Source: Macrostomum lignano (Eukaryota). Taken from it: DNA of 64,000 nt. Within the stretch, counting starts at the first letter, position 1, and every line of letters begins with the position of its first letter. Location: positions 5,875 to 69,874 of the forward strand of contig NIVC01002540.1 of NCBI GenBank assembly GCA_002269645.1, written 5' to 3'. The notes beneath the pieces were generated by a model that made no database searches, was not told where the DNA came from, and was given only the letters and a program-made list of their open reading frames with translations. A program made the translations under genes and the position numbers. Below, in pieces: positions 1,443 through 43,384 of this stretch.

Positions 1443-2925
1443 ATGGCAGAGGGCAGCCACCGCGCGATTCCAAGAACTTTTGGCGCTCTGGCAACTTTAA
1501 TGAGTGGCTGCAGCGGTTTGAGCTGTGTGCAGCAGCCAACAAGTGGACAAATGACAAACACCTGCATCTGCCAACGTTTCTGGATGGCGAGGCTCTGGTG
1601 GCCTTCCTTGAGCTCAGCGACAAGGACAGAGCGACTACAGTCAGGTGACCAAAGACAGCACGACTCCGCCAAGATGGTCCGACAACAGACTGCGACACCT
1701 CAGCCGCATCTGGCGGAAGTTGCGAATTCAAGACGGCCTTCTCTGCCCGGCCTTCAACGACGCTGCAAGACCGAGGGAGGTTCCCGTGATTCCGGAGTTG
1801 CTGCGGCGCCAGTTCCTGACCGACATTCACGAGGGCATCGGCGGTCATTTCGGACCGGAGAAAATGGCCGACACGCTGAAGCAGACCGCGAGTTTCTGCC
1901 AGGAGTGCCAGAACTGCCAGCTGAAAAAGGCGCAGCGCCGGCCCGCAGCCCCTCTCGGTGAGATGCCGATCGGCAAGCCCTGGCAGACGGTGGCGATCGA
2001 TGTGCTGAAGGTGCCGACATCGGACCGAGGCAACAGCTACCTACTGGTGATGCAGGACCAGTTCTCCAAGTTCCTGACCGCCGTGCCGATGCCAGATCCG
2101 ACCGCCAAAACCATCGCGGACGCTGCAGTGAAAGTCTTCTCTCTGCTCGGAGTCCCGTCCGTCATCCACTCGGACCAGGGCGCGAACTTCGAGAGCGAGC
2201 TGTTCCAGGAGACGCTGAAAACACTGGGCATCAAGAAGATGCGCATTACGCCGTACCATCCGCAGGGAAATGGACTGGTGGAACGCGGCAACAAGTCGCT
2301 GCTGCAGCTGCTGAGGCTGTTCGCCGAGACTGAGTCCAGCTGGGAGGAGCAGCTGCTGCTGGTGGTCCTGTCCTACAACTACAGGGTCCACAGCTCAACC
2401 AATGTGGCGCCGCTGACGGTGATGACCGGCCGCGACCCGCAGCTCTCGCCGGAGGTGCAGAGCAGCGAGCAGCAGTTCGACATCGGCACCTACTCAGCAC
2501 TGCTGGAGCGGCGGCTGGCCCGGATCCGCGAGTTCATCGAGAAGAACCTGGTAGCCGCCGGGCAGCAGCAGAAGGCCGCTCACAACAAGAAGGCGGCGGA
2601 CCTGCCGCAGTTCCCGCAAGGTGCCAAGGTGCTGCTCAGCATCGAAATGCGGCGCTCAAAGTCGGCGCCCTACTGGGAGCCGGGCTGGACGGTGCTTGAG
2701 CAGCGCGGTCACTCGGTGTGCATCCGCCGCGCCTTCGGCAGCCGGCCGGTCCGCTGGGTGCACGTGAACCGGCTGCGCAAGCGGTTCGCAGCCCAGCCCG
2801 ACTCTGACCAGCTCCGTCAGCAGCCGGTGACCCACCAGGTCGCGCCGGAGACCAGCCAGACCGAGCGGCGGTACCCGGCCAGGCAGCGGCGGCCTCCGGA
2901 CTTCTTTGGCGTGAGCACTGAGTGA
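1443..2925 (+). CDS. Gag-N/integrase fusion reading frame with two -1 frameshifts
   Basis: ATG at 1443. Restoring one G near 1485 and one near 1632 gives PRTFGGSGNFNEW...DRADYSQVTK, in frame with ORF 1645-2925. That ORF has H2C2 (shortened by about 10 aa), the catalytic residues AIDVL, HSDQG and VERGN, and C-terminal RRYPARQRRPP. Confidence 0.7.
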
Positions 2926-7710: not shown

Positions 7711-8904
7711 GGAGCCTGATGAATGGGTAGTTTAGTGGCACACGGGTTTCTTAGATGCTCAATCATCTGAGTAAGCAGCCACAGATATACTTGAGTATTC
7801 GTACTATAAATTACAGTTGCGACACGGGCAGAAGCAACGGCGATCGTGTCTGCCATCAGTTCGGCCTGTAGAACTCGTTGATTTGCATTCGCAGCAAGTT
7901 CTCTGCTCCGCCAGCAGTCAGCCGCGGCCGAGGCAGCCGCAGGCAGAAGCCACAAGAGCTGGCAGTCCCCAACTGGCGGAGTTGTGCATCAGAGCGTCCC
8001 AGCAGTTGGAGCATCCAAAAAGCTTACCAAAAATCAAAATAATCATAAAAATCATTTAGAGCCTTCTGACTCCAAATAATTGTTAGTATGCTTCAGCTAG
8101 GCTCGCGTAATGGTTTCTATAATATTGCCACGGAAAAGCTACGGAAGATGCAACAGCTCAAACCTTCATGGAGCTGGCTGTCTTTATAGCAGAGAAATTC
8201 GCAGCTGTGGCCAGAACACACACAGCTCTGCAGCATACAGAGTAACCGAATATTGAAAACATGAAATCGCTCAAGAACGCTCAAGATTCCGACTTCAGCA
8301 TTAGGTGTCTAGAATGCGAAAGATGGAGAGCATCATCGAAGAGAAAAATTCACTCCCCTCCTCTGTGGAATAGATTTCTCGCGACTGGCAGCTGAGCGCT
8401 CAGGAGCAATGCTCAGATGAGGCGAAACAGCTGCTGGAGCGAGCGTAGCATGAAGTTTGACTAGCTGAGCCCAGCTCACCCAACCGCAGCCAGCGTTGGA
8501 ACATACTTCAAGACTGGTTAGACAGTCTTTAACAGCATAGCAACCGACAGCAACCTACCTGTTAGTTAATGTCAATTTTCTGCTTTAGTTTCTGCTTCAG
8601 CGACTCTGCCAACAAGAGCAACTACCTGCTGAGAGATGCCTAGGTGAGTCTTGCAACCGTGAACCGTAACGCGATGCTGAGTAAGTTGAATGAGGCCAAC
8701 TTATTGGAGAAATTTTTTTGTGAGTAGCGTCTGCCGGTCCGTGTCAGTTGGAAATGAATTAAAGCCTTCATGATTCCATTGAGACAAACCCATGCCGGAT
8801 TTTAATTTTATTTATTCTGTTATTATTACTATTGCTAGTCAAAAGAAACACAGCTCCTTTGCGGCAATGCTTGTAGAAACATCAGATCTAGACAATCTCA
8901 AGCA

Positions 8905-19319: not shown

Positions 19320-20400
19320 GGTCTAGATATTCAGCTTGTAGATCCGTCTTGCGGAAGGTCTAGATCAGTTTGTAGATCTGGCTTGCGGAGGGTCTAGATC
19401 AGTTTGTAGATCTGGCTTGCGAAGGGTCTAGATCAGCTTGTAGATCTGGCTTGCGGAGGGTCTAGATCAGTTTGTAGATCTGGCTTGCGGAGGGTCTAGA
19501 TCAGTTTGTAGATCTGGCTTGCGGAGGGTCTAGATCAGTTTGTAGATCTGGCTTGCGGAGGGTCTAGATCAGTTTGTAGATCTGGCTTGCGGAGGGTCTA
19601 GATCAGCTTGTAGATCTGGCTTGCGGAGGGTCTAGATCAGTTTGTAGATCTGGCTTGCGGAGGGTCTAGATCAGCTTGTAGATCTGGCTTGCGGAGGGTC
19701 TAGATCAGCTTGTAGATCTGGCTTGCGGAGGGTCTAGATCAGCTTGTAGATCTGGCTTGCGGAGGGTCTAGATCAGTTTGTAGATCTGGCTTGCGGAGGG
19801 TCTAGATCAGTTTGTAGATCTGGCTTGCGGAGGGTCTAGATCAGTTTGTAGATCTGGCTTGCGGAGGGTCTAGATCAGCTTGTAGATCTGGCTTGCGGAG
19901 GGTCTAGATCAGCTTGTAGATCTGGCTTGCGGAGGGTCTAGATCAGTTTGTAGATCTGGCTTGCGGAGGGTCTAGATCAGCTTGTAGATCTGGCTTGCGG
20001 AGGGTCTAGATCAGTTTGTAGATCTGGCTTGCGGAGGGTCTAGATCAGTTTGTAGATCTGGCTTGCGGAGGGTCTAGATCAGTTTGTAGATCTGGCTTGC
20101 GGAGGGTCTAGATCAGCTTGTAGATCTGGCTTGCGGAGGGTCTAGATCAGTTTGTAGATCTGGCTTGCGGAGGGTCTAGATCAGTTTGTAGATCTGGCTT
20201 GCGGAGGGTCTAGATCAGCTTGTAGATCTGGCTTGCGGAGGGTCTAGATCAGCTTGTAGATCTGGCTTGCGGAGGGTCTAGATCAGCTTGTAGATCTGGC
20301 TTGCGGAGGGTCTAGATCAGCTTGTAGATCTGGCTTGCGGAGGGTCTAGATCAGCTTGTAGATCTGGCTTGCGGAGGGTCTAGATCAGCTTGTAGATCCG
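19320..20400. repeat. 34-bp tandem satellite (GTCTAGATCAGTTTGTAGATCTGGCTTGCGGAGG)n, about 31 copies
   Basis: 34-nt period measured (19381 to 19415); begins about 6 nt upstream of the amt ATG. Confidence 0.96.
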
Positions 20401-20590
20401 GTTTCTTTTCCTAAAGAAGCTAACTGTATTAAAATTATGCCAGCCAGCTCACCGCGCTGAGCCCCGCCCTTTGAGCATGAGTCAAACTCAAGCTGTGAGC
20501 ACGTAAAATTATAGGTAGTAATAATGGTAGAAACACGAGACGTCACGTACTTAGCAAGGTAATATGACACCCTCCGCACTACTGCTTTAG

Positions 20591-21647
20591 TGTAGAGTGT
20601 TCTACCTCCCATAAGAAGACATAAAAGTGTTAATGTACTACTCATACATTTTATTCAGTAGTAAGTTGAAGAGCATGAATAAAGGTATGCTTTGAATTAT
20701 AAGTTTATTCTGACTAACCAATAGGAAGAGAGAGACCTTGTGCATGTTAAATTTAGAAATCACCCAATCACGTGTAACCTGTACTTGTCAAACGCAAACC
20801 CCAGGAAAGATGCATCATTCAACTGTACGCACGTGACCCAATCAAATGTAACTAAAAATAACTCGAATGCGATGACCAATCACGCGCTTTTACACTGAAC
20901 CAATGGAATGACTTTCTACCCTGCCAAGTTTGACAGCAACCAAACCGTGACCTTTTTGACAGCTGAAGAGTTGGACTCACGTGACCTCATGGGGGTCCAA
21001 TTGCCTATAAATACAAGTGGTCCGGAACGGACCCGGAGCCAAAAAAATCTCCAAGAGAGAGAAGCTCCGAAGAGGAAGCTCTAGTGAAGCCTTCCTGAAG
21101 AAACTCGCGTCGTGGACGAGTTCTTGCGGTAAGCCTTACTCATTTGCGCCCGTTGGTTGAGACGTCTCGCTCAAGTCTATTGAGACTTGAGTTTATTTGA
21201 GTCTGTTGAGACTCCTGAGTCTGTTTAGACTCTACTGGTTGCAGTCTCCAGAAGGACTGCCCCTGATAGATCTTAGAAGACTATCAGTGGTTTCCGGAGC
21301 TATACCTAGAGTGCATAGAGGCACTGCTAGAAGGAGTAGGCTTATATTAAACCGCAGATTGGCGCAGGGTACCCATTGTTAATTTGGAAGCTTCCCATTG
21401 GTCCGCACTACAGATACCGGCCGGAAATACTTCGAAGGGAGAGAAAAGGAAACTCGGACCCAATCGACATCTGAAGACGTCTAAAAGTCTAAGAGATCTA
21501 CAGAACCGAACGACTCAAGAACGATATCAAGGAATCCGGATCAAGGTAATTGAATACCTTCATTTGATTACTGGGTTGCCTAGCTACAGAGCTAGAAGTG
21601 ATTGTTCCTTGATTACAGTTGAGGACTGGTAATAAGGAACGCCATCA
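20591..21647 (+). repeat. 5' LTR (1057 bp)
   Basis: Starts TGTAGAG, ends CCATCA; contains several CCAAT and CACGTG motifs and a TATA box (CCTATAAATA, about 21004). Confidence 0.97.
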
Positions 21648-21649
21648 AT

Positions 21650-21663
21650 TGGTGATCTCGCCC
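21650..21663 (+). promoter_or_regulatory. Primer-binding site TGGTGATCTCGCCC, possibly tRNA-Val
   Basis: Lies 2 nt after the LTR. Complementary to a tRNA ending GGGCGAGATCA-CCA, which resembles invertebrate tRNA-Val acceptor ends (recalled, not checked). Confidence 0.55.
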
Positions 21664-22421
21664 TCTCGGCACTACTCAAACTTTGAGCAATAGCCCTGAT
21701 CAAGCTATTGTAACGTGACGAAAGAGCGACTTCATTAATTTTGCGCGCACGTGTTAGAGTTAACACTTTTGAAGTCCGAACGTTTTGAAACTCGAGTAAA
21801 AATTTTGGTGTACAGGTTTGAGCACCTGTCAATTTTGAGTACAGTTTGAGCACGCGTGTAAATTTTTGTTTTAACGAGCTCGAGCAAGTGTGAGTTTAAA
21901 ATAAACCGAAAAACAAACCGAAAATAAAAAGAATCGTCGAAGCAAAACAAACAAAAAAATAACTAAAACATTTTACCGGCACAAAAACTAAAACAAAACC
22001 GAAAAACAACGTCCGGTACACTGAAAACAAACCGAAAAGTAATCAATACACACTAAAACAAAACCGAAATTAAAAACACTTGACGAAAGCTAAAACAAAC
22101 CGAAAATTGATAAAACGTGACAAGGCACGTCACAAAGACAAGAAAGGCCTTTGAAAAAAACAAGAAGACAAAGTCCACTTCAACGTGAAGATACACTTTG
22201 CGGGACGCCGCATAAGTGCGAAATCAGCAAGCGAACAGAACAAGTTCATTTGAGGACAACCAGTGGCAGCAAGCCACACCGCATTCGAGGCCAACGAATA
22301 ACAAATCGACACCACAAGGCAATTCGTTACAGTCGAAGTTTATTCCGAGGCAAACACCACACTGGACGATCCGTTACAAATCGATCCAGATCTTGAACTA
22401 CCGTTCTACCCTATCAACAAC

Positions 22422-25400
22422 ATGGCGCGGCGCAATCCAACGGTACACAGAGACATCAAAGAAACGGTCGGTACTTTCTCGATGGAGAAAGATTTTAACA
22501 CATTTGTCGACCATTTCGACCTGGTATGTAGGGAATACAACCTAAAAAATCCAGAGAAGGCACAGCTGCTGCCACCTCTTCTCCAAGGTACTGCGCGAGA
22601 AATTTACGGCAAGCTGGACGCGGCAACACAGCAAAATTATCCAGCACTAATCATTCAACTGCGCGCGCATTTCAACCGTTGCGGCACAAACAGATCAGTG
22701 CTGCTGCACAAGTTACATACCAGAAGGATGCAAGCAACGGAATCCTTCCTCGCCTTTGTGGACGATATCCGCCAGATAATTAAGGCACTGCATCAGCCAC
22801 CGCTGCAAGCTGCGGACCAACCGCCACTGGGAGCGGCAGAATTGGCCGCCAGAGAAAGACAGCGATTGATGGATCGCGAACAAAACCTAATCCTGCACGT
22901 AATAAACAACGCACAGCCGTCACTTCGGGATAGACTTTTACGAGAAAATATCGAAACCGAAGAAGACCTTTTGCGGTGCGGAATGCAATGGGAAGCCAGT
23001 GCCCCATTAATGACGACAGGCAACAATGAAGTGCAGAAACTGACGCAGCAATTAAACAAGTTAATGCAGCACCAGACAGCTGCTATCGCCGAACAAAAAA
23101 GACGAAATGAACAAGCCTCAGCCAGATGTTACTACTGCGGACAAGAAGGACATTATCAGATTAATTGTCCTCATTGGTCAACAAGATACGACAAGCCGCG
23201 ACAGATATTCAACAATCAAAAGCCGCAGAAACCATGGCAGCAATATCAAAATCGCCAACAACAAGGCATGAGACGCTTCGGAAATGATAGACGCTTCGGA
23301 AATAATGACCGCTCCGGAAATGATGGCCGCTTCGGAAATGATGGCCGCTTCGGAAATGACGGCCGCTTCAGAAATAATAGCTACAGGCCACGCAACGCCA
23401 GGTACACACAAAGACAGCCAACGCAAGCAATGCCACGATACGCGAATGCCATCACGTACACACCGGAAAATGAGCAGCAAGAACAGCAAGTGTTCACAAT
23501 TGATGACTTGGAAATGGACTTCACAGTCCCGGAACTTGACATCAGCTTGATCGAAAAAAAGACAACGCACGAGGACAACACTGACAAGGCAGAAGAGGCG
23601 AATGAAACCGAAATGATCGAATTAAAAGAGACCACCGGAGACAGCAGAGAAAACAGGAAGAAAGTAAATCACAAAAAAAGGGAGGAGGCGGAGAGCGATA
23701 CCGGCAACGAAGAAAAGAGGGAGACCAACGAAGAGAACAACTATGAATCAACAGCAGTGAAAGACGACAAAATAAGCATGAAAGACAAAGAAATAAAAGA
23801 AGAAGAATGTAAGAGTTACGGCAACGATCACGACTGCGAGGTGCGTGATGACACGAACGTCTACCAAGCCGAAGAAGGAATGCAGGAAGAACTGAGAGCG
23901 GAAAATCTAAGCTCCGACAGCGATCAAGGCTACGAAATACAATGGAAGGATGAAGAAATGGAAAAAGAACAGAGGAAAGAAAAGCCGAGTTCCGACAGCG
24001 ACGAATGCTACGAGATCCGATACAAACGAAATGGTGAAGCCTACATTCAAACAGTCGACTACAAGACAGAGAGAAAATACCAAACGCAATGGAGTGAAAC
24101 AACTGAAACATCAGAAGAAGCGGCAGACGAAGATACTGAAATAACCAAAAAGCAAAGCGAATCAGAACCCTTCCGCCTGAAACAGCCAATAGAGCAACCG
24201 GAAGGATATGATGCGGACATGGAAGATAACGAATGGCAGTCGCGGCCAATGCCAGCAAAGACAACGGCAAAGTCCAAAAAGTGGAAAAACTGGCTACTCT
24301 GGATCATCGTGATACTACTGATAGCAGTAGTCGCCAAAGCAAAGGCAACGGAAAAGCCAATGATCTGTCCAACGGATGCGCATATCCAACCGATGATCTA
24401 CAAGATACCAACCGACATCAAATGCAGCTACTTCAAGACAAACCAGACGAAGCCAAAGAAGATTACACTTGATCTCTACAAGGCTAACATCAAAAAGCAT
24501 CGACAACACGGAATAGTGTGCTGCAGAGACAAGCACCTAGTGGAAAAAGTCTGGCGCGGACAATGGAATAGGATCCGATTTAAACAACATGAGCTACATG
24601 TGTCGCACGCGGAATGCCTACAATGGAACCAAACACTGTTTTCAAAGGATGGTGAACTGGAACCAGATGAGAAGGTCGGCAACGCACAGCTGTTCAGAAC
24701 AAAGAATTCAGCCAACGGTCGATACATTCACTTCTTCGGAAAATGGAAAGAATATGTAGCACGCAACAGCTACTTGATCAGAAATATTCCATTCTACTAC
24801 AATCCATACGAGAAAATGGAATCGCTACAGCTACAACTAAGCGAATGTCGATACAGTGAAGGATGGTGTCCAACACCAATTCTACGGAAGGAAGAATTAC
24901 ACAGTCTACCACTGAGTCCAACATATCATCAAAACTATCGATGGCAGATTGAGCACAGAGCACAATCACACTATGAGGAACCGTACAAGGCACGACAATA
25001 TTACTTCGCATGGGAAGTAGAGCCGGAAATTGACTGCAAGCTTCAAAAGTACCACACAGTGGAAGGAGGGCTACTGTCGAATACATTTTTGGCAAAAGCA
25101 GGAGACTTGGCCTTGACGTTTCAAAGGAAGCCGGTCGAACAGGAACTCAAATGCAAAGATACGGACAAGACGCTATTCATTTCGGAACAAGAAATACCAG
25201 TCTACGTGAAGGATGCTGACAAACAAACCTTCCTGGCAATCATAAATGGAACATATCAGCAACAAGAGAGACAACGACGCGGCATAGAACGTCCACGATT
25301 GGTGTCAAACCGACTGCTGTCAGCAAAGATCACGGCGCTGGATCACAACCTGCATAACCAGCTTAACCACTTACATCGGTCACTGGTTCAGCTAACTTGC

Positions 25401-26576
25401 AAAATGCACGCAATCAACTTGAACTACGCAAGGCAAAACTACTATGTCAACCCTACGATGACATTTCGCAAGATCACGGGAATGAGAGAGGTTCTGGCAA
25501 TTCCGATATATGGACATCTCCTGATATACAAGTGCACGCCGATACAGCACTTCAACATCTTGCCGTCGAACACTTCAACAACTTGCTACGACAAGCCGAG
25601 AATTGAAGCATTCTACGAAGGCAAAAGAATACAAGGATTCTTGGACACAGTACACAACATCATCGTTGGCACAGCCATACCAAGACCCTGCACCACTGCA
25701 GCAAACTACTATCAACTGGACAATGCACTACACGTCATTAAAACGACAGGAACGACAGCGAACATCACGGAACCAGAAGTGATTGTCGATGAAACGTACG
25801 ATATGGACGATCTGAAGATACGGTTCAACAGAACGAAGTACACGCCATTCGCCGATATCCAACTCGATGAGATAACACCCGGATGGACCATCAACGACTT
25901 CTTGCAAGCGTTCATCACTCAACGGAAGATGATTCGTCAACTCTTCACACGAAAGAATAAAGGAACAGGCACAGGCAGTTTTCCGGTCCTAGTGTCTATG
26001 GACAACGCCATCCAATCGTTTTGGACCAACAGCTTCTTAGAGCTGCTTAACGGAAAAGGCAGCCTCTATCAAGGCTTCATCTTCTACAGTGCCTGTGTTG
26101 TATGGGTAGTTACGGCAATCTTTATCATCTCGTCGATAGTACGATGCTTCAGCAACACTTGTCCCACAGCGAAACGAACAGTGAACGCCATCATGCAGAA
26201 GATACCAAGGGAAGAAGACAACAACTTGGAATTGACAGAGGATGCACGTCAAGAAACTCAAGGACAGCCGACACCATCAACGCGAATGTATCCATCGATT
26301 CCGACAACACCAACAGCACCGAGAATGCAGCCACCTGGCTATCAGCAGGATCAACACGAGCCGAAATGGCCAGAAAACTACGTCTGCACGCTACACGCTG
26401 AGATTGGCAAGGCAATGGCTCAGGTCATTGTCAACAACTTGCCATGTCGAGCACTACTGGATTCAGGCAGCTCTATCACCGTCATCTCGCAACAATTATG
26501 CAACAAGCTACGACTCGCGGTACGACCAGCAGCAATCGCAGTTGCAGGAGCAGGAGGACATTCACTCAATATCTAG
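22422..26576 (+). CDS. Gag - acidic spacer - envelope glycoprotein - protease N-half (1384 aa)
   Basis: Capsid-like N-terminus; CYYCGQEGHYQINC at 23127-23168; signal-like KSKKWKNWLLWIIVILLIAVVAKAKA at about 24270-24346; ectodomain with 13 Cys and 6 sequons; furin site RQRR at 25269-25280; TM at 26076-26141; LLDSGS at 26460. Confidence 0.93.
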   Translation: MARRNPTVHRDIKETVGTFSMEKDFNTFVDHFDLVCREYNLKNPEKAQLLPPLLQGTAREIYGKLDAATQQNYPALIIQLRAHFNRCGTNRSVLLHKLHTRRMQATESFLAFVDDIRQIIKALHQPPLQAADQPPLGAAELAARERQRLMDREQNLILHVINNAQPSLRDRLLRENIETEEDLLRCGMQWEASAPLMTTGNNEVQKLTQQLNKLMQHQTAAIAEQKRRNEQASARCYYCGQEGHYQINCPHWSTRYDKPRQIFNNQKPQKPWQQYQNRQQQGMRRFGNDRRFGNNDRSGNDGRFGNDGRFGNDGRFRNNSYRPRNARYTQRQPTQAMPRYANAITYTPENEQQEQQVFTIDDLEMDFTVPELDISLIEKKTTHEDNTDKAEEANETEMIELKETTGDSRENRKKVNHKKREEAESDTGNEEKRETNEENNYESTAVKDDKISMKDKEIKEEECKSYGNDHDCEVRDDTNVYQAEEGMQEELRAENLSSDSDQGYEIQWKDEEMEKEQRKEKPSSDSDECYEIRYKRNGEAYIQTVDYKTERKYQTQWSETTETSEEAADEDTEITKKQSESEPFRLKQPIEQPEGYDADMEDNEWQSRPMPAKTTAKSKKWKNWLLWIIVILLIAVVAKAKATEKPMICPTDAHIQPMIYKIPTDIKCSYFKTNQTKPKKITLDLYKANIKKHRQHGIVCCRDKHLVEKVWRGQWNRIRFKQHELHVSHAECLQWNQTLFSKDGELEPDEKVGNAQLFRTKNSANGRYIHFFGKWKEYVARNSYLIRNIPFYYNPYEKMESLQLQLSECRYSEGWCPTPILRKEELHSLPLSPTYHQNYRWQIEHRAQSHYEEPYKARQYYFAWEVEPEIDCKLQKYHTVEGGLLSNTFLAKAGDLALTFQRKPVEQELKCKDTDKTLFISEQEIPVYVKDADKQTFLAIINGTYQQQERQRRGIERPRLVSNRLLSAKITALDHNLHNQLNHLHRSLVQLTCKMHAINLNYARQNYYVNPTMTFRKITGMREVLAIPIYGHLLIYKCTPIQHFNILPSNTSTTCYDKPRIEAFYEGKRIQGFLDTVHNIIVGTAIPRPCTTAANYYQLDNALHVIKTTGTTANITEPEVIVDETYDMDDLKIRFNRTKYTPFADIQLDEITPGWTINDFLQAFITQRKMIRQLFTRKNKGTGTGSFPVLVSMDNAIQSFWTNSFLELLNGKGSLYQGFIFYSACVVWVVTAIFIISSIVRCFSNTCPTAKRTVNAIMQKIPREEDNNLELTEDARQETQGQPTPSTRMYPSIPTTPTAPRMQPPGYQQDQHEPKWPENYVCTLHAEIGKAMAQVIVNNLPCRALLDSGSSITVISQQLCNKLRLAVRPAAIAVAGAGGHSLNI

Positions 26577-28500
26577 GAAAAGCAGATATCGACTTGAAAA
26601 TTGCTAATAAACATCTGACGGTCCCGACGTACATCATCGACAAACTACCAAACCAAGACGTCATTGTTGGAATCGACACGTTCAAGCAGCTTCGACTACC
26701 ATTGACCTTCGACTTCAACAAGCAAACGTTTAGGATTGACACGGTGGAGCAACCACTGATTAACCAGATTCGAGTACTACCAAAAGTTACCTTACAGCAA
26801 GATGTCATCATCCAGCCTGAAAGTGCATGCTGGGTCAGAGCGAAAGCGACCAGCGCGGCAGATGAAGCAATGATATTTGATCCACACAGGAGAGTCACGG
26901 CAAAACATCAAATCATGATGCCTACGGCACTAGTGCTGGTGGCGAAAGATAAGCAGCTGCCAGTACAAATCTTCAACCCGAACGCGGAAATGGTTCATCT
27001 ACGACAAGGAATGTGCATCGGTCATCTCAACACTCAAGCATCAGTTATGCTGATTGAGCACACGACTCCACGACTAACAGAAGAAGAATTTCAAAAGAAA
27101 ATCAACTTGGACGACAGCCCGATCACGGAACAGCAAAAGAAGAAAGTTCGACAACTGTTGTGGAAGTACAACGAAGCCTTCTGCCATCATGATTACGACA
27201 TCGGACGCGCTAAAGACATTAAACAAGAAATCAAGCTTCTACCGCACACTGAACCAATTCAGTGCAAGCCGTACCCGATTGCCAAGCATCTGCAACAACA
27301 CTTTGACGAAATTATTGATAAAATGCTAAAGCACGGCATCATCAGCAAAGCAATTTCAGCCTATTCCTCACCGTGCCTACTGGTACAAAAGAAAGAGACT
27401 AACGAGAGACGACTTGTATGCGACTTCAGACTGCTGAACAAGTACATACCGACGGATCAGCAAAGCCTACCAAAGATCTCCGAGCTACTAGCAAAGCTCA
27501 ACACAGCAAAATTGTTCACGGTGTTCGACCTACGTCATGGATTTTGGCAAATTGAAATCGAGAAAGAATCACGACAGTACACGGCTTTTAAGACCTACAA
27601 TGGACAAGTCTACGAGTACAACCGATCGCCAATGGGACTCAGCAACAGCCCAGCAACAATGAGCCGACTAACGGCATACATGCTTGCAGGATGCACAAAC
27701 CTGCTGCACTATGTCGACGACATCTTGGCCTACGGAGAAGACTTCCAACGACTCTATGAAGCTACGGAGAAGGCCCTAGCGCTCATTCAACGCCAAGGTC
27801 TTAAGCTACAACCGACGAAATGCAAATTCTTCCGAGACAACGTACGTTACCTAGGACACCAAGTGACAGCCAAAGGAATCTCACCGGACCCAGACAATGT
27901 GGAGAAAGTAAAAAAGTTTCCTACGCCAACTAGCATTACGAAGGTCCAATCGTTTCTTGGACTAGCGCAATACTTCCGAAAGTTCTTACCGAACTTCGCG
28001 AAGACAGCAAAACCGCTGTACGACCTGCTCAAATTCGACAAGTGGAAACGAGAGAACTGGACGCAAAAGCAGCAAGAGAGTTTCGACGAAATCAAACGAC
28101 AACTGACATCAGACGCACTACTACAGCATCCGGACTTCGACAAACCCTTCATCATCGAGACAGACGCCTCAGGAACGGGACTCGGAGCCGTCCTACTACA
28201 GGAAACCGAGGACAAGAAGGAGCGACCTATCGCCTACGTCAGTCGAGCACTCAAGCCAAATGAAACAAAGTGGTCAGCTACGGAACGCGAGCTACTAGGA
28301 GTCTTGTTCGCCCTACGACAGTTCCATTACTACATCTATGGTTCTCCAATACCGACGATAGTACGCACAGATCACGCACCGCTGACCTACGTCGTAACTA
28401 CAAAAGGACAAACAAATAACCGACTCATCAGGATGACACTCAAGATCCAGGACTACAACTACAAGCTCGTCTACAAACCAGGAATTACTAACAAGGCGCG
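26573..28500 (+). CDS. pol: Protease C-half, reverse transcriptase and RNase H (ORF 26444-28597 frame)
   Basis: VIVGIDTF; RRLVCDFRLLN; FDLRHGFWQI; YVDD at about 27710; RNase H motifs. Linked to both neighbouring ORFs by -1 shifts at about 26573 and about 28498. Confidence 0.95.
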
Positions 28501-29922
28501 GACGCTCTGTCAAGAGCCTACGAAGTCAACGCCATTCATCCAATCCCTAACATCAAGGAATTGGTGGATGAGACTGAACACGACAACTTCTACATAGCAG
28601 TTAAAAACAACGACAAGGACATCAAGCTCAGCCCCGTGGAACGAAAATTCCTGCGCAAGCAGCGACAACATTTAACAATCAACAAGTCACGACTCTACTG
28701 GATGAGTGACAACAAACCTAAAATCTACATGCCATATTCGTTTAGGCAGGCCATTCTCAACGAGCTGCACGACAACCCACTCGCTGGACACCTGTCGGCA
28801 GCCAAAACCATTGCAAGAGTGGAGCAATACTACTTTTGGCCAAGCATGCATGGCGACATCAAGCAGTATTGCAACAACTGCCACTCATGCGCAGCATCGA
28901 AGACAGGACGACGACAGAAACCACAGCTACAATCGATACCGAAGTCAACAACTATGGACTGTCTCAGCATCGACATCACCGGACCGCTGCCACCGAGCTG
29001 TCTCCATGGCATAGCCTACACCTACATCCTAACAGCCTTGGACATTTTCTCAAAGTTTGCTATTGCCATACCAATACCGGACATCACAGCTCAGACAGTG
29101 GCAATGGGTTTCTTCAACGACATCATCTGCAAGTACGGTACGCCAAAGAACCTCACATCGGACAATGGATCGCAGTTTACGTCTCAACTCTTTCAGCAAG
29201 TGGTGAAGATCCTCAACATCACGCAGATCTACACATCGACCTACAATCCGAAGGCGAACATGGTTGAAAGGTTTCACCGCAACCTACACGAGATGATTAC
29301 ACACTTCGCGCATCAACAACCGGACGACTGGATCATCTATCTGCAAGCAGTAACAATGGCCTACAACAGCGCTATTCATCGATCAACGGATAATACGCCA
29401 TTCTTTCTAATGTTTGGGCGAGACTTCCAGCCGCCAAACCTATTGGCACAGCAACTACTACCATCGCAATATGTGGAAGTCCCGACGTCCATTCAAAAGT
29501 TCGTCACGCAACTACACCTCGCATGGAAAGTAGCCAAGCACAACATCGACAATCAGGTGGCTCTAACCACCGGCACCGACACGAGATCGACAACTCTGAC
29601 AGCCGGCGACATCGTCTACCTGCACTATCCGCCGCAACAGACGCACAAACACGCACAGAAGTACAAAGGACCATATCGAGTGGTCCAACTAACGTCACCG
29701 ACAACGGCACGCCTGGCCAATGTGCAAGATCCTCATCAGCACCAATTCTACGTGCACATTCATCGACTAAAGAAGATCAACACTGACACGACAACGTTTT
29801 TACCGTCACTAGACAACGCTGATCGCACGCGTTCGGCGAACCGCCACATCGCAACAAAACACGAGGAGACACAAACATCAACCGAGAAACAGCAACATGG
29901 CTACAATCTGCGACCTCGTTAA
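28498..29922 (+). CDS. Integrase
   Basis: One extra G gives YKPGITNKAADALSR. Contains HDNPLAGH...CNNCHSC, SIDITG, SDNGSQF and VERFH, and ends YNLRPR*. Confidence 0.95.
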   Translation, partial: ADALSRAYEVNAIHPIPNIKELVDETEHDNFYIAVKNNDKDIKLSPVERKFLRKQRQHLTINKSRLYWMSDNKPKIYMPYSFRQAILNELHDNPLAGHLSAAKTIARVEQYYFWPSMHGDIKQYCNNCHSCAASKTGRRQKPQLQSIPKSTTMDCLSIDITGPLPPSCLHGIAYTYILTALDIFSKFAIAIPIPDITAQTVAMGFFNDIICKYGTPKNLTSDNGSQFTSQLFQQVVKILNITQIYTSTYNPKANMVERFHRNLHEMITHFAHQQPDDWIIYLQAVTMAYNSAIHRSTDNTPFFLMFGRDFQPPNLLAQQLLPSQYVEVPTSIQKFVTQLHLAWKVAKHNIDNQVALTTGTDTRSTTLTAGDIVYLHYPPQQTHKHAQKYKGPYRVVQLTSPTTARLANVQDPHQHQFYVHIHRLKKINTDTTTFLPSLDNADRTRSANRHIATKHEETQTSTEKQQHGYNLRPR

Positions 29923-30033: not shown

Positions 30034-30246
30034 ATGGGCAACGCACTGTCCAAACAGGCGCCCCAACTACAGCAACTCTACGAATGCCCAATATGTTTAA
30101 CTGACGACTTGGCTGTCAAGCCACCAATTATTTGTGAAAACAGACATCGCATATGCGGACAATATTTAGGCGACTCACATTATATTCAGCTCTGGCAGAA
30201 TTGCCCGATAGGTAGAAGAAGTTTGCGGCAGTGCGCCTATCGTTAG
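30034..30246 (+). CDS. Small ORF with N-myristoylation motif and a degenerate C3HC4 RING (70 aa)
   Basis: MGNALSK with ACAATGG start context; C18-x2-C21-x12-C34-x3-H38-x2-C41-x2-Y44-x12-C57-x2-G60. Confidence 0.6.
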   Translation: MGNALSKQAPQLQQLYECPICLTDDLAVKPPIICENRHRICGQYLGDSHYIQLWQNCPIGRRSLRQCAYR

Positions 30247-30464: not shown

Positions 30465-31521
30465 TGTAGAGTGTTCTACCTCCCGTAAGAAGACATAAAA
30501 GTGTTAATGTACTACTCATACATTTTATTCAGTAGTAAGTTGAAGAGCATGAATAAAGGTATGCTTTGAATTATAAGTTTATTCTGACTAACCAATAGGA
30601 AGAGAGAGACCTTGTGCATGTTAAATTTAGAAATCACCCAATCACGTGTAACCTGTACTTGTCAAACGCAAACCCCAGGAAAGATGCATCATTCAACTGT
30701 ACGCACGTGACCCAATCAAATGTAACTAAAAATAACTCGAATGCGATGACCAATCACGCGCTTTTACACTGAACCAATGGAATGACTTTCTACCCTGCCA
30801 AGTTTGACAGCAACCAAACCGTGACCTTTTTGACAGCTGAAGAGTTGGACTCACGTGACCTCATGGGGGTCCAATTGCCTATAAATACAAGTGGTCCGGA
30901 ACGGACCCGGAGCCAAAAAAATCTCCAAGAGAGAGAAGCTCCGAAGAGGAAGCTCTAGTGAAGCCTTCCTGAAGAAACTCGCGTCGTGGACGAGTTCTTG
31001 CGGTAAGCCTTACTCATTTGCGCCCGTTGGTTGAGACGTCTCGCTCAAGTCTATTGAGACTTGAGTTTATTTGAGTCTGTTGAGACTCCTGAGTCTGTTT
31101 AGACTCTACTGGTTGCAGTCTCCAGAAGGACTGCCCCTGATAGATCTTAGAAGACTATCAGTGGTTTCCGGAGCTATACCTAGAGTGCATAGAGGCACTG
31201 CTAGAAGGAGTAGGCTTATATTAAACCGCAGATTGGCGCAGGGTACCCATTGTTAATTTGGAAGCTTCCCATTGGTCCGCACTACAGATACCGGCCGGAA
31301 ATACTTCGAAGGGAGAGAAAAGGAAACTCGGACCCAATCGACATCTGAAGACGTCTAAAAGTCTAAGAGATCTACAGAACCGAACGACTCAAGAACGATA
31401 TCAAGGAATCCGGATCAAGGTAATTGAATACCTTCATTTGATTACTGGGTTGCCTAGCTACAGAGCTAGAAGTGATTGTTCCTTGATTACAGTTGAGGAC
31501 TGGTAATAAGGAACGCCATCA
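30465..31521 (+). repeat. 3' LTR (1057 bp)
   Basis: Same length as the 5' LTR. Only one difference was spotted by eye (CCCATAAG vs CCCGTAAG). Confidence 0.97.
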
Positions 31522-31583
31522 TTAGGAGCAATGTACCTGTTTTAGGCTTAACAGTCGGATGACGAAGCTATTTTTCCATTGCA

Positions 31584-42423: not shown

Positions 42424-43308
42424 CTAATTAGAATGCGACTTGGTCACCATTGCAGCGGACAGCTCAGTCTGGAAGGTGTCCACTGTCGCTGCCGCCACCT
42501 CAGCAGCCAGCCGATCACGCTGGCGCCGGTTGCAGAACCAGGTGAGAACAACTGGCTTAGGCAGGCCGAGGCGGCTGCTCAAAGCCGCCGAATCGGCTTT
42601 TGACAGATGCGGCGTGTGCAAATAGTGGCGCTCGAGCTGCGCCAACTGGGCGCCAGACGGCTGGCAGCGGGGGCGCCGGGCGCGCCGCTGTCGGATCAGC
42701 CGAGTCGGCGGCCCGACGGCGCCAGTCTCAGCTGCGCTGGCCGCGGCGGCTACGATGGAGTCGGCGGCCTCGGGACCGAGCAGCTCGCGAGCCTCGAGGT
42801 CGGCCAGCCAGCGGCGCAGCAGCGGCCAGACGTCGGTCATGTTGTCCAGACTGAGGTCGGCCAGCTCAAAGCGGCTGAGCATGCCCTGGCTGATTGTGCA
42901 CTTGTACAGCCGCTCCATTGCCAGACAGGCGTCCAGCTGCGAGTAGCCCAGCTCCTCCCGGCGCCGGCGAAACCGCTGGGCAAAGGCGGCCAGCTCCGCC
43001 ATGCTGGCGCCGGAAGGTCCGGCTGCGTCGGCGGCAGCGCTGGCAGCCGACTGCTGACGGGCCGCGTTGGCTGGCAACTCGGCGATGCTGGCACTCATCG
43101 AAGGCGCCAATAACTTGGTGTCGGCAGCATCGGCCGCGGCTTCGGCGCCGGCCCGCGGCAACAGCAGGAACTGCTGCCTATCCGGCGGGTACTGGCGGCA
43201 GCTCAGGCTGGGCGGCTGCTCAACTGGCACGGCATTCATGCGGCCGTCAATCAGGCTCTGGGCCAGGTGCTCCACCTGACGCTGGGTTACTAAGCCGCAT
43301 AGAGGCAC
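42424..43308 (-). CDS. Divergent POU-domain transcription factor, single-exon ORF
   Basis: POU-specific domain ELAAFAQRFRRRREELGYSQ...ISQGMLSRFE...LLRRWL and homeodomain ending VVLTWFCNRRQRDR (WFCNRRQ is the POU hallmark). Confidence 0.88.
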   Translation of the reverse strand: MPLCGLVTQRQVEHLAQSLIDGRMNAVPVEQPPSLSCRQYPPDRQQFLLLPRAGAEAAADAADTKLLAPSMSASIAELPANAARQQSAASAAADAAGPSGASMAELAAFAQRFRRRREELGYSQLDACLAMERLYKCTISQGMLSRFELADLSLDNMTDVWPLLRRWLADLEARELLGPEAADSIVAAAASAAETGAVGPPTRLIRQRRARRPRCQPSGAQLAQLERHYLHTPHLSKADSAALSSRLGLPKPVVLTWFCNRRQRDRLAAEVAAATVDTFQTELSAAMVTKSHSN

Positions 43309-43384
43309 AAGAATGTCTGGCCTGTTAAATATGATTGTGCGATGTCAGTAATGATGGCCTCTTAGTCTCGATGCCGTATACTCT

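Follow-up and report, generated by a model that had tools for sequence, protein, structure and literature searches.

The window (the whole stretch of 64,000 nucleotides that was analysed) contains a retroelement whose envelope gene lies between Gag and the protease. This raises the questions of whether Gag, Env and Pol can be made as a single polyprotein that is threaded through a membrane, and whether such a gene order is new. In our view, the element probably belongs to a flatworm Ty3/gypsy family that carries an envelope gene, exists in many copies and is of the GAG-ENV-POL gB-type kind already described in print; this copy was probably inserted recently, and the polyprotein is modelled as membrane threaded. 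Its features are as follows.

20587..20590 (left copy) and 31522-31525 (right copy), strand not given: target site duplication (TSD) TTAG, 4 bp
20591..21647, +: 5' LTR, 1,057 nt, TG...CA ends, 1 mismatch with the 3' LTR
21650..21661, +: primer-binding site TGGTGATCTCGC, 2 nt past the 5' LTR
22422..23168, +: Gag, capsid-like region and CCHC knuckle (knuckle 23127-23168, aa 236)
23460..24230, +: acidic spacer, 257 aa (aa 347-603), 31% D/E
24279..24347, +: putative internal signal segment (basic, hydrophobic core, A-x-A; aa 620-642), KD 2.68 over 17 aa
24348..26072, +: Env ectodomain, class III (gB/Monjiviricetes-type) fusogen
25269-25280, +: furin-like RQRR (aa 950), within the Env ectodomain
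26073..26141, +: transmembrane (TM) helix, putative stop-transfer, KD 2.63
26142..26400, +: cytosolic tail (about 100 aa)/Env-protease linker; YPSI 26289, PTAP 26310, PPGY 26331
26401..26576, +: protease N-half, LLDSG at aa 1345 (DSG at 26460); the frame stops at the first frameshift
26402..28597, +: protease C-half, RT and RNase H (RVT_1 2.7e-28, RT_RNaseH_2 1.4e-37)
28492..29922, +: integrase (H2C2, core, GPY-like C-terminal motif), Integrase_H2C2 6.3e-21, rve 8e-15
30034..30246, +: accessory ORF, 70-aa truncated tandem RING protein
30465..31521, +: 3' LTR, with a short purine run (GGGAGA) just before it

The insertion is young, as its two 1,057-nt LTRs differ by one mismatch and a 4-bp TSD flanks them. 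The TG...CA LTRs, the TSD and the tRNA primer site are those of Ty3/gypsy elements (Metaviridae), and the pol genes have the Ty3/gypsy order PR-RT-RH-IN. The primer site is present in 18 of the 19 copies fetched. Gag has the CCHC knuckle of a Ty3/gypsy Gag, and its capsid region, which has no Pfam match above the cut-off, was assigned only through Atlas neighbours with Ty3_capsid/Retrotrans_gag at 0.92-0.93; Pfam gag matches in 3 of the 27 Env relatives scanned agree with this call.

The preliminary description reported one stop-free frame from Gag to the DSG of the protease, and this is indeed what is found. The frame is free of stops from 22302 to 26576, has a Met at 22422, encodes 1,384 aa and contains all of the parts described, in the order Gag, acidic spacer, signal segment, Env, TM helix, tail and protease DSG; 200 shuffles of this DNA gave stop-free stretches of 289 aa at most. 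The claim of a full Gag-Env-Pro-Pol polyprotein holds for the family, in which sisters have a single ORF of about 2,500 aa encoding Gag, Env, PR, RT, RH and IN. It does not hold for the window copy as assembled, because two frameshifts, near 26.57 kb and near 28.49 kb, interrupt pol and the main frame ends inside the protease. We rejected programmed frameshifting as the cause, since the sisters are in frame at both sites; the breaks may be either real mutations or assembly errors. The preliminary description did not mention these frameshifts, nor the gB-type fold, the late-domain-like motifs and the 3' RING ORF that are discussed below.

The junctions were surveyed at 36 places, in copies located through env, and each count refers to the copies that hold both probes. 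The two sides are in one ORF at spacer-signal-Env in 33 of 34 copies, at Env-TM-tail in 28 of 28, at tail-PR in 27 of 28, between the protease halves in 34 of 35 and at RH-IN in 13 of 15. Of the 80 Env matches in G000, 11 are within open frames 2,450 aa or longer. More distant Env relatives came from a HMMER library search, which was the informative one; word-index searches for long Env-containing proteins gave just two near-identical proteins. Among the 57 relatives, a CCHC motif precedes Env in 23, a protease motif follows it in 17 and both are present in 13, of which six also have RT and four also integrase. None of the 57 has an RT motif ahead of Env. A Panagrolaimus protein (P0037) has Env-PR-RT-RH-IN in one chain, and the RT of the window element is 31% identical to its nematode match in a pairwise comparison.

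These observations bear on whether Env is a nested insertion in, or a neutral passenger of, an ordinary Gag-Pol element. The flanks of Env do evolve faster than the core genes, with a pooled dN/dS of 0.35 for the acidic spacer, and the tail is likewise fast. However, both ends of Env are in frame in nearly all of the copies, the same order recurs in relatives at 20-30% identity, and the dN/dS of Env is near 0.05 (0.04-0.07 at dS 0.3-1.0, against the five copies L021, L024, L027, L032 and L033), while that of Gag is about 0.04. Env is as strongly conserved as the capsid or integrase, and is under strong purifying selection. A nested or passenger Env is effectively refuted by this selection, and we give it almost no probability.

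The Env ectodomain has about 575 aa, with 13 Cys and six N-glycosylation sequons. Its profile (alignment A1) matches herpes gB at E 4e-16, and its predicted structure (pLDDT 78.9) matches gB at E 8e-23 as well as nyami-, chu- and rhabdo-like glycoproteins, the nyavirus glycoprotein ranking fourth in a search of viral folds. A single-sequence PDB search with Env gave nothing useful (one match, E 0.75). The profile and the modelled structure together show a gB-type class III fold. As in the GAG-ENV-POL gB-type class of PMC13524379, Env lies between Gag and Pol, and its HSV/gB fold is flanked by signal/TM segments.

We suggest that the genomic RNA would be translated into one polyprotein, of which Gag would remain in the cytosol. 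The internal signal segment would direct Env into the ER and be cut there by signal peptidase, so that Gag, itself without Gly2, would be left membrane-anchored by a C-terminal hydrophobic stub. Furin would cleave Env, and the TM helix would bring the tail and PR-RT-RH-IN back to the cytosol, with Pol hanging on the Env tail rather than fused to Gag. The signal and TM calls are from hydropathy and motif scans, not SignalP or DeepTMHMM. Over the 36 places, the AxA and hydrophobic core are present in 27 of the 27 copies read there and the TM helix is hydrophobic in 35 of 35. The signal/furin/TM pattern also recurs, with the gene order, in relatives at 20-30% identity. Several of the long relatives have no clear TM or signal at the threshold used, their best TM-like windows being 1.1-1.7 in seven of the eight rechecked.

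The first hydrophobic segment might instead be an uncleaved TM anchor, Env being a luminal loop with two TMs that is processed by furin and the element's own protease only. The hydrophobic core is long and strong (KD 2.68 over 17 aa), and among the gB-type ectodomains of PMC13524379 some lie between a signal peptide and a TM and others have a TM on each side. However, A-x-A directly precedes the start of mature Env in all 27 copies read, and the segment also ends in small residues in many distant relatives, so that we regard an uncleaved anchor as improbable. On the whole, the in-frame junctions in most sisters, the purifying selection on Env and the membrane pattern in relatives favour the architecture and the membrane threading that the preliminary description proposed, as far as sequence comparison can tell.

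In retroviruses and insect errantiviruses, Env is translated from a spliced mRNA, and env could likewise be an in-frame intron here, or have its own mRNA, with Gag-Pro-Pol made without membrane threading. This would solve the problem of stoichiometry, since a 1:1:1 ratio of Gag, Env and Pol is wasteful and needs surplus Gag, to which we found no route. However, conservation covers the two membrane segments as well as the reading frame that flanks them, and Gag/Env/Pol motifs occur in one chain in database proteins from many sources, which are predictions from DNA. Among 24 runs, no RNA run is on record as containing the element, which is evidence in neither direction. All four of the contig sets searched, three of which we guess to be RNA, cover 30 of the 30 bins of the element, and contigs in X5 and X6 span 22649-24395, from Gag to the start of Env, which does not amount to a single transcript. 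Among the 15 joints listed (22 more are unlisted), none removes env between GT..AG ends. A single long skip was rejected as splicing and taken as a DNA deletion variant, as it is also in X15, a run of unknown kind. We think a spliced env quite improbable.

To return to the membrane-threaded polyprotein, the linker between Env and the protease has three classes of late-domain-like motifs (YPxI, PTAP and PPxY) packed into 18 residues. Among the 34 copies read, PT/SAP is present in 33, PPxY, with a variable x, in 34 and YPxI in 34; these copies are not independent, one linker sequence being common to 21 of them. PT/SAP and PPxY arise together in 12 of 20,000 shuffles. In a second family of the same host (P0013, RT identity 41%), this linker contains PSAP and LYPTL. 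The motifs are rare in distant relatives and absent from most: among 16, PT/SAP occurs in 2 (0.16 expected), PPxY in 1 (0.4) and YPxL in 3 (1.46). A motif scan of the window copy's Gag found no Gly2, PT/SAP or PPxY.

We predict that the motifs could serve in budding by bringing in ALIX, TSG101 and NEDD4-type ligases, and that trimerisation of Env would concentrate the protease, so that the enzymes and core are freed. YPSI also matches the YxxPhi sorting consensus, and the motifs may instead be signals for endocytosis (YxxI sorting) or ubiquitin-dependent degradation of Env (PPxY turnover), particles then forming without ESCRT or inside the ER. Their absence from most distant relatives agrees with such a role; three classic late-domain classes so close together, PSAP plus LYPxL at the same place in the second family, and the lack of PT/SAP and PPxY in Gag speak against it. 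We consider sorting or degradation signals possible, if rather doubtful.

The accessory ORF is truncated in the window; in sisters it encodes 124-222 aa beginning with Gly2 (leaving out, for Gly2, a 64%-identity subfamily), and two sets of eight ligands with C3HC4 spacing are invariant in 8 of 8 aligned ORFs. Its profile matches the RINGs of TRIM31 and TRIM5 (E 2e-5 and 4e-5). It falls under every Pfam cut-off (best 22.4 bits, gathering score 27.3), Foldseek gives nothing for it at E 0.001 or better, and none of 12 candidates is a homologue at E 0.01. The top Atlas matches are viral RING proteins (0.90-0.91, low recognition), a weak lead, and nothing among the 60 PDB rows listed supports a likeness to arenavirus Z. 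The most likely role of the protein is that of a ubiquitin ligase attached to the membrane, which would help release or act against host defence, its activity and N-myristoylation being predictions only. At least one spreading subfamily can do without it.

Neither the late-domain-like cluster in an Env tail nor the 3' RING ORF was found in print. Our literature searches, with passages of PMC5408684, gave no description of gypsy elements whose accessory ORFs encode RING or myristoylated proteins, or of late domains in their Env tails; nor, in the passages covered, does the host LTR survey PMC12801592 mention RING or ORF or PMC4604429 contain anything on the window element. The main text of PMC13524379 does not mention polyprotein, in frame, late domain, ESCRT, budding, myristoyl or RING.

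A bolder reading is that enveloped particles would form by a route undescribed for retroelements, with Gag on the stub of the Env signal, Pol as an extension of the Env tail, the ESCRT late domains shifted from Gag to that tail, and a myristoylated tandem-RING protein from the 3' cassette, which is duplicated in longer copies, as a matrix-like or counter-defence factor. We put it forward tentatively, as an idea with a fair way to go before even odds. If the membrane-threaded model is right, Env and not Gag can be the means by which a retroelement packs its enzymes and buds, which would change the view of the minimal retroviral assembly plan. The candidate budding signals in the Env tail and the extra RING-finger gene hint at a possible route of exit from the cell. 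The family offers testable handles on the function of such elements, including the conserved signal, furin and TM segments, the late-domain-like cluster and the RING gene, and transgenesis of the host is reported (PMC5730564).

As for the gene order, the preliminary description knew of no described element of this kind and had agreed to give up the claim if the order was already catalogued. It is: Chary and Hayashi (eLife 2026, PMC13524379) describe gB-type elements with the order GAG-ENV-POL from nematodes, bryozoans and flatworms, so the order is not new. These elements are not monophyletic, and their transmission and entry mechanism is stated there as unknown. The flatworm family listed, Platyhelminthes_Rhabditophora_Mlig_errantivirus_2, resembles the window element in gene order, gB-type Env, LTRs, multi-copy state and flatworm host, and has the identical 12-nt primer site 2 nt past the LTR. 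From the primer site to the 3' LTR it measures 8,862 nt in the table, compared with 8,815 in the window; 13 of the fetched copies have both landmarks, and in 11 of these the distance is 8,848-8,893. By table entries rather than by sequence, the two thus agree in primer site, in internal length, in the type of Env and in host label, and proteins 95-99% identical to the window element are labelled Macrostomum lignano. Two Env motifs are absent from the seven supplementary files of PMC13524379, where the family appears as a name and coordinates only. Its tabled LTR differs, at 863 nt against 1,057, and may be cut short because the call starts at extract position 0.

The nematode endogenous retroviruses (NERVs), said to be the subject of Sacco et al. 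in 2022, reportedly have a continuous gag-env-pro-pol ORF, as our family does, with a metavirus-type RT, a nyamivirus-like glycoprotein and an extra ORF. They differ in host phylum, being reportedly restricted to chromadorean nematodes, whereas the proteins nearly identical to ours carry a flatworm label, and the RT identity to the nematode match is just 31%. Insect errantiviruses such as gypsy and ZAM share the Ty3/gypsy pol, an env gene and a 4-bp TSD, but their env is F-type and lies 3' of pol, unlike that of the window element, and is made from a spliced mRNA. Atlas virus (Belpaoviridae; Merchant et al. 2022, PMC9094657, as far as the available part goes) likewise has Gag, Pol and Env in one intronless polyprotein of 2,828 aa; however, its Env is last and class II (phlebovirus-like), and its Pol never re-crosses the membrane. 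The C-terminal class II Env of the Belpaoviridae is absent from the window element. In flavivirus and alphavirus polyproteins, an internal signal sequence follows the capsid, and foamy virus Gag is not myristoylated and requires Env to bud. The likeness to these viruses is in the way of working only, without homology, and the window element differs from them in that its enzymes come after the Env tail and its protease is of the retroviral aspartic type.

The preliminary description read Gag, Env and the start of the protease in a single frame, and this frame is indeed present: no stop codon interrupts it between 22302 and 26576, a Met is encoded at 22422, and the longest stop-free run among 200 shuffles of the same DNA is 289 aa. 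In its 5' part, a Gag region with a CCHC knuckle is followed by a 257-aa acidic spacer and then a basic-hydrophobic-AxA segment. The Env ectodomain, about 575 aa long, contains 13 Cys, an RQRR site and 6 sequons; a TM helix and then a tail of roughly 100 aa separate it from the protease motif LLDSG. An 18-nt coding repeat at 23274-23378 encodes an RFGND-type basic repeat downstream of the CCHC knuckle. The element has LTRs of 1,057 nt that differ at one position, a primer site and, at its borders, a TTAG duplication; it is therefore a very young insertion. A 34-bp array (19331-20398) lies about 190 nt from its insertion site, and minisatellites are abundant across the window (31 entries). Other features of the window are:

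1612-2925, forward strand, integrase belonging to a different LTR element (rve, 2.7e-15)
30034-30246, ORF 3' of the integrase (RING ORF), truncated form
42424-43344, reverse strand, segment of a host POU-homeodomain gene (Pou 7e-20, Homeodomain 6.5e-15)

The element is real, young and multi-copy; a DNA search of a genome dataset (G000) with the Env region gave at least 43 matches, with 40 of 91 candidates scored. In the window copy, two frameshifts split pol, one within the protease and one at the RH/IN junction. We compared 36 places, of which 19 are loci spanning at most 9.9 kb and 17 are loci centred on Env and spanning at most 5.8 kb; the locus of the window itself was left out, as were two duplicates. 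These sister copies were collected via env, a sampling that env-less sisters would escape. Among copies holding both probes, one ORF joins spacer, signal and Env in 33 of 34, Env, TM and tail in 28 of 28, tail and protease in 27 of 28, both halves of the protease in 34 of 35, PR and RT in 27 of 34, RH and IN in 13 of 15, and CCHC and spacer in 28 of 33. All 13 domain probes lie within one ORF in one of the 19 long loci; frame breaks are scattered, and their position differs from copy to copy. In a protein search of G000, 11 of 80 Env matches fall within open frames that are 2,450 aa or longer. The junction counts and long open frames indicate that the family design, as read from sequence, is one ORF and that the window's breaks are not programmed; the in-frame sister copies rule out programmed frameshifting at both. 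Splicing around env is a rival account of how such an ORF is used. One sister locus (L033) has a dS from the window of 0.02 in the integrase and 0.8-1.0 in Gag and Env, a mosaic divergence that points to recombination between subfamilies.

Pfam gives Env a sub-threshold Monjiviricetes fusion match (E 1.5e-4). A profile built from 44 sequences, namely Env of the window plus 43 of 57 relatives, picks out herpesvirus gB from the PDB (E 4e-16). Structure searches with the AlphaFold model (pLDDT 78.9, pTM 0.61) find gB (E 8e-23, TM-scores around 0.4) and, with similar E-values, nyami-, chu- and rhabdo-like virus glycoproteins. Pooled over non-independent pairs of the window with 8 of the 19 long copies, dN/dS comes to 0.02 in RT and 0.04 in both capsid and integrase; the two halves of Env give 0.08 and 0.06, TM plus tail 0.17, and the spacer 0.35. 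The Env values rule out a passenger, and Env is, on these comparisons, a maintained gene.

A HMMER search of 1.84 billion representatives found 57 Env-related proteins. By motif scan, 23 have a CCHC upstream of Env, 17 a protease motif downstream and 13 both; none of the 57 has an RT motif upstream of Env. Pfam, run on 27 relatives, found RT in six and integrase in four of the 13 CCHC-Env-protease proteins. Of the 10 relatives looked up, those with a name are a Panagrolaimus protein and a member of a second flatworm family. One relative (P0031) has a protease match on each side of Env, and three (P0030, P0050, P0064) have two tandem protease motifs between Env and RT. In another (P0001), a glycoside-hydrolase domain is fused to the element's Gag-Env-PR, probably a gene-model artefact. 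P0013, a 2,852-aa protein with the same host label, represents a second Gag-Env-Pol family annotated as one protein, with 29% Env and 41% RT identity to the window element. The hydrophobic segment, furin-like site and TM pattern recurs in most long relatives, several being without one element at the threshold used. The first hydrophobic segment could alternatively be an uncleaved anchor.

The linker between the TM helix and protease has YPSI, PTAP and PPGY inside 18 residues. Late-domain motifs of these classes are established in retrovirology as binding TSG101, NEDD4-type ligases and ALIX. The linkers readable in 34 of the 36 copies represent 12 distinct variants; the YPSI class is kept in 34 of 34, the PTAP class in 33 and the PPGY class in 34, and adjacent residues vary. 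PT/SAP and PPxY occurred together in 12 of 20,000 shuffles. P0013 has PSAP and LYPTL at the same place. Distant relatives seldom have the motifs: of 16, two have PT/SAP (0.16 expected), one PPxY (0.4) and three YPxL (1.46). A motif scan found no PT/SAP or PPxY in the element's Gag. The tail motifs may, as a rival explanation, serve sorting or turnover.

The RING ORF starts with MGNALS and has two RING-type ligand sets; in longer copies it also encodes a helical domain, and a second paralogue is present. Its profile matches TRIM RINGs (E 2e-5), and Pfam gave no match above cut-off. With dN/dS of 0.11-0.15 where measurable, the ORF is, by this measure, under purifying selection. The full form in sisters has a Gly2 start, two RING sets and a helical C-terminal part; most sisters encode 124-144 aa, and two of them, L024 and L039, 222 aa. 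In L024, L038 and L039 the ORF is accompanied in tandem by a second paralogue, 206-231 aa long. G000 has 145 matches, several as arrays on contigs C87, C272, C2121 and C4009. The ORF is stop-truncated in 20 of the 145 (the window and 19 other places), and therefore one subfamily spreads without the full RING protein. A subfamily with 64% Env identity is present on contigs C717, C583, C2596 and C391; in all four of these full-length matches, the RING ORF is about 4 kb downstream of env.

The element thus combines one frame, a gB-type fold and conserved topogenic motifs. By analogy with flaviviruses, we infer that the polyprotein would be threaded co-translationally through the membrane. Signal peptidase and furin would cut within the secretory pathway, and the element's own protease would act in the cytosol. 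Gag and Pol would become two separate chains on one side of the membrane, where the signal stub would hold Gag and the Env tail would hold Pol. Threading had been proposed in the preliminary description, and the frame and motifs agree with it; the separate, membrane-held Gag and Pol are a consequence left undrawn there. A Gag held by the signal stub would explain its lack of a myristoylation site, and the late-domain-like motifs on the Env tail would be explained if that tail holds Pol and the stub holds Gag. Stoichiometry is the remaining difficulty of threading, and we consider Env-driven packaging and budding a tentative model, somewhat more doubtful than probable. The main value of this work is a testable assembly model and two undescribed features, the linker motifs and the 3' RING ORF, which we did not find in print. 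Nothing relevant on Env-tail late domains or RING accessory ORFs in gypsy elements was found in a literature search that covered mainly open-access papers.

A continuous gag-env-pro-pol ORF is reportedly described in the abstract of Sacco et al. 2022. That study is cited by Chary and Hayashi (PMC13524379), whose main text uses none of the terms polyprotein, in frame, late domain, ESCRT, budding, myristoyl and RING. According to the same paper, nematode, bryozoan and flatworm errantiviruses have solely gB-type Env and the arrangement GAG-ENV-POL, in several separate clades. The gene order is already catalogued, and the earlier suggestion that it was new fails because this paper reports it for flatworm errantiviruses. 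Its table has nine flatworm families, one of which measures 8,862 nt internally, inside the range of the sister copies, and has the same primer site as the element; database proteins 95-99% identical to the element are labelled Macrostomum lignano. The family itself is very probably catalogued too, being matched by primer site, length and host label rather than by direct sequence comparison. Atlas virus, as described in PMC9094657, is a further case in which a retroelement polyprotein can include Env, although its Env is at the polyprotein end.
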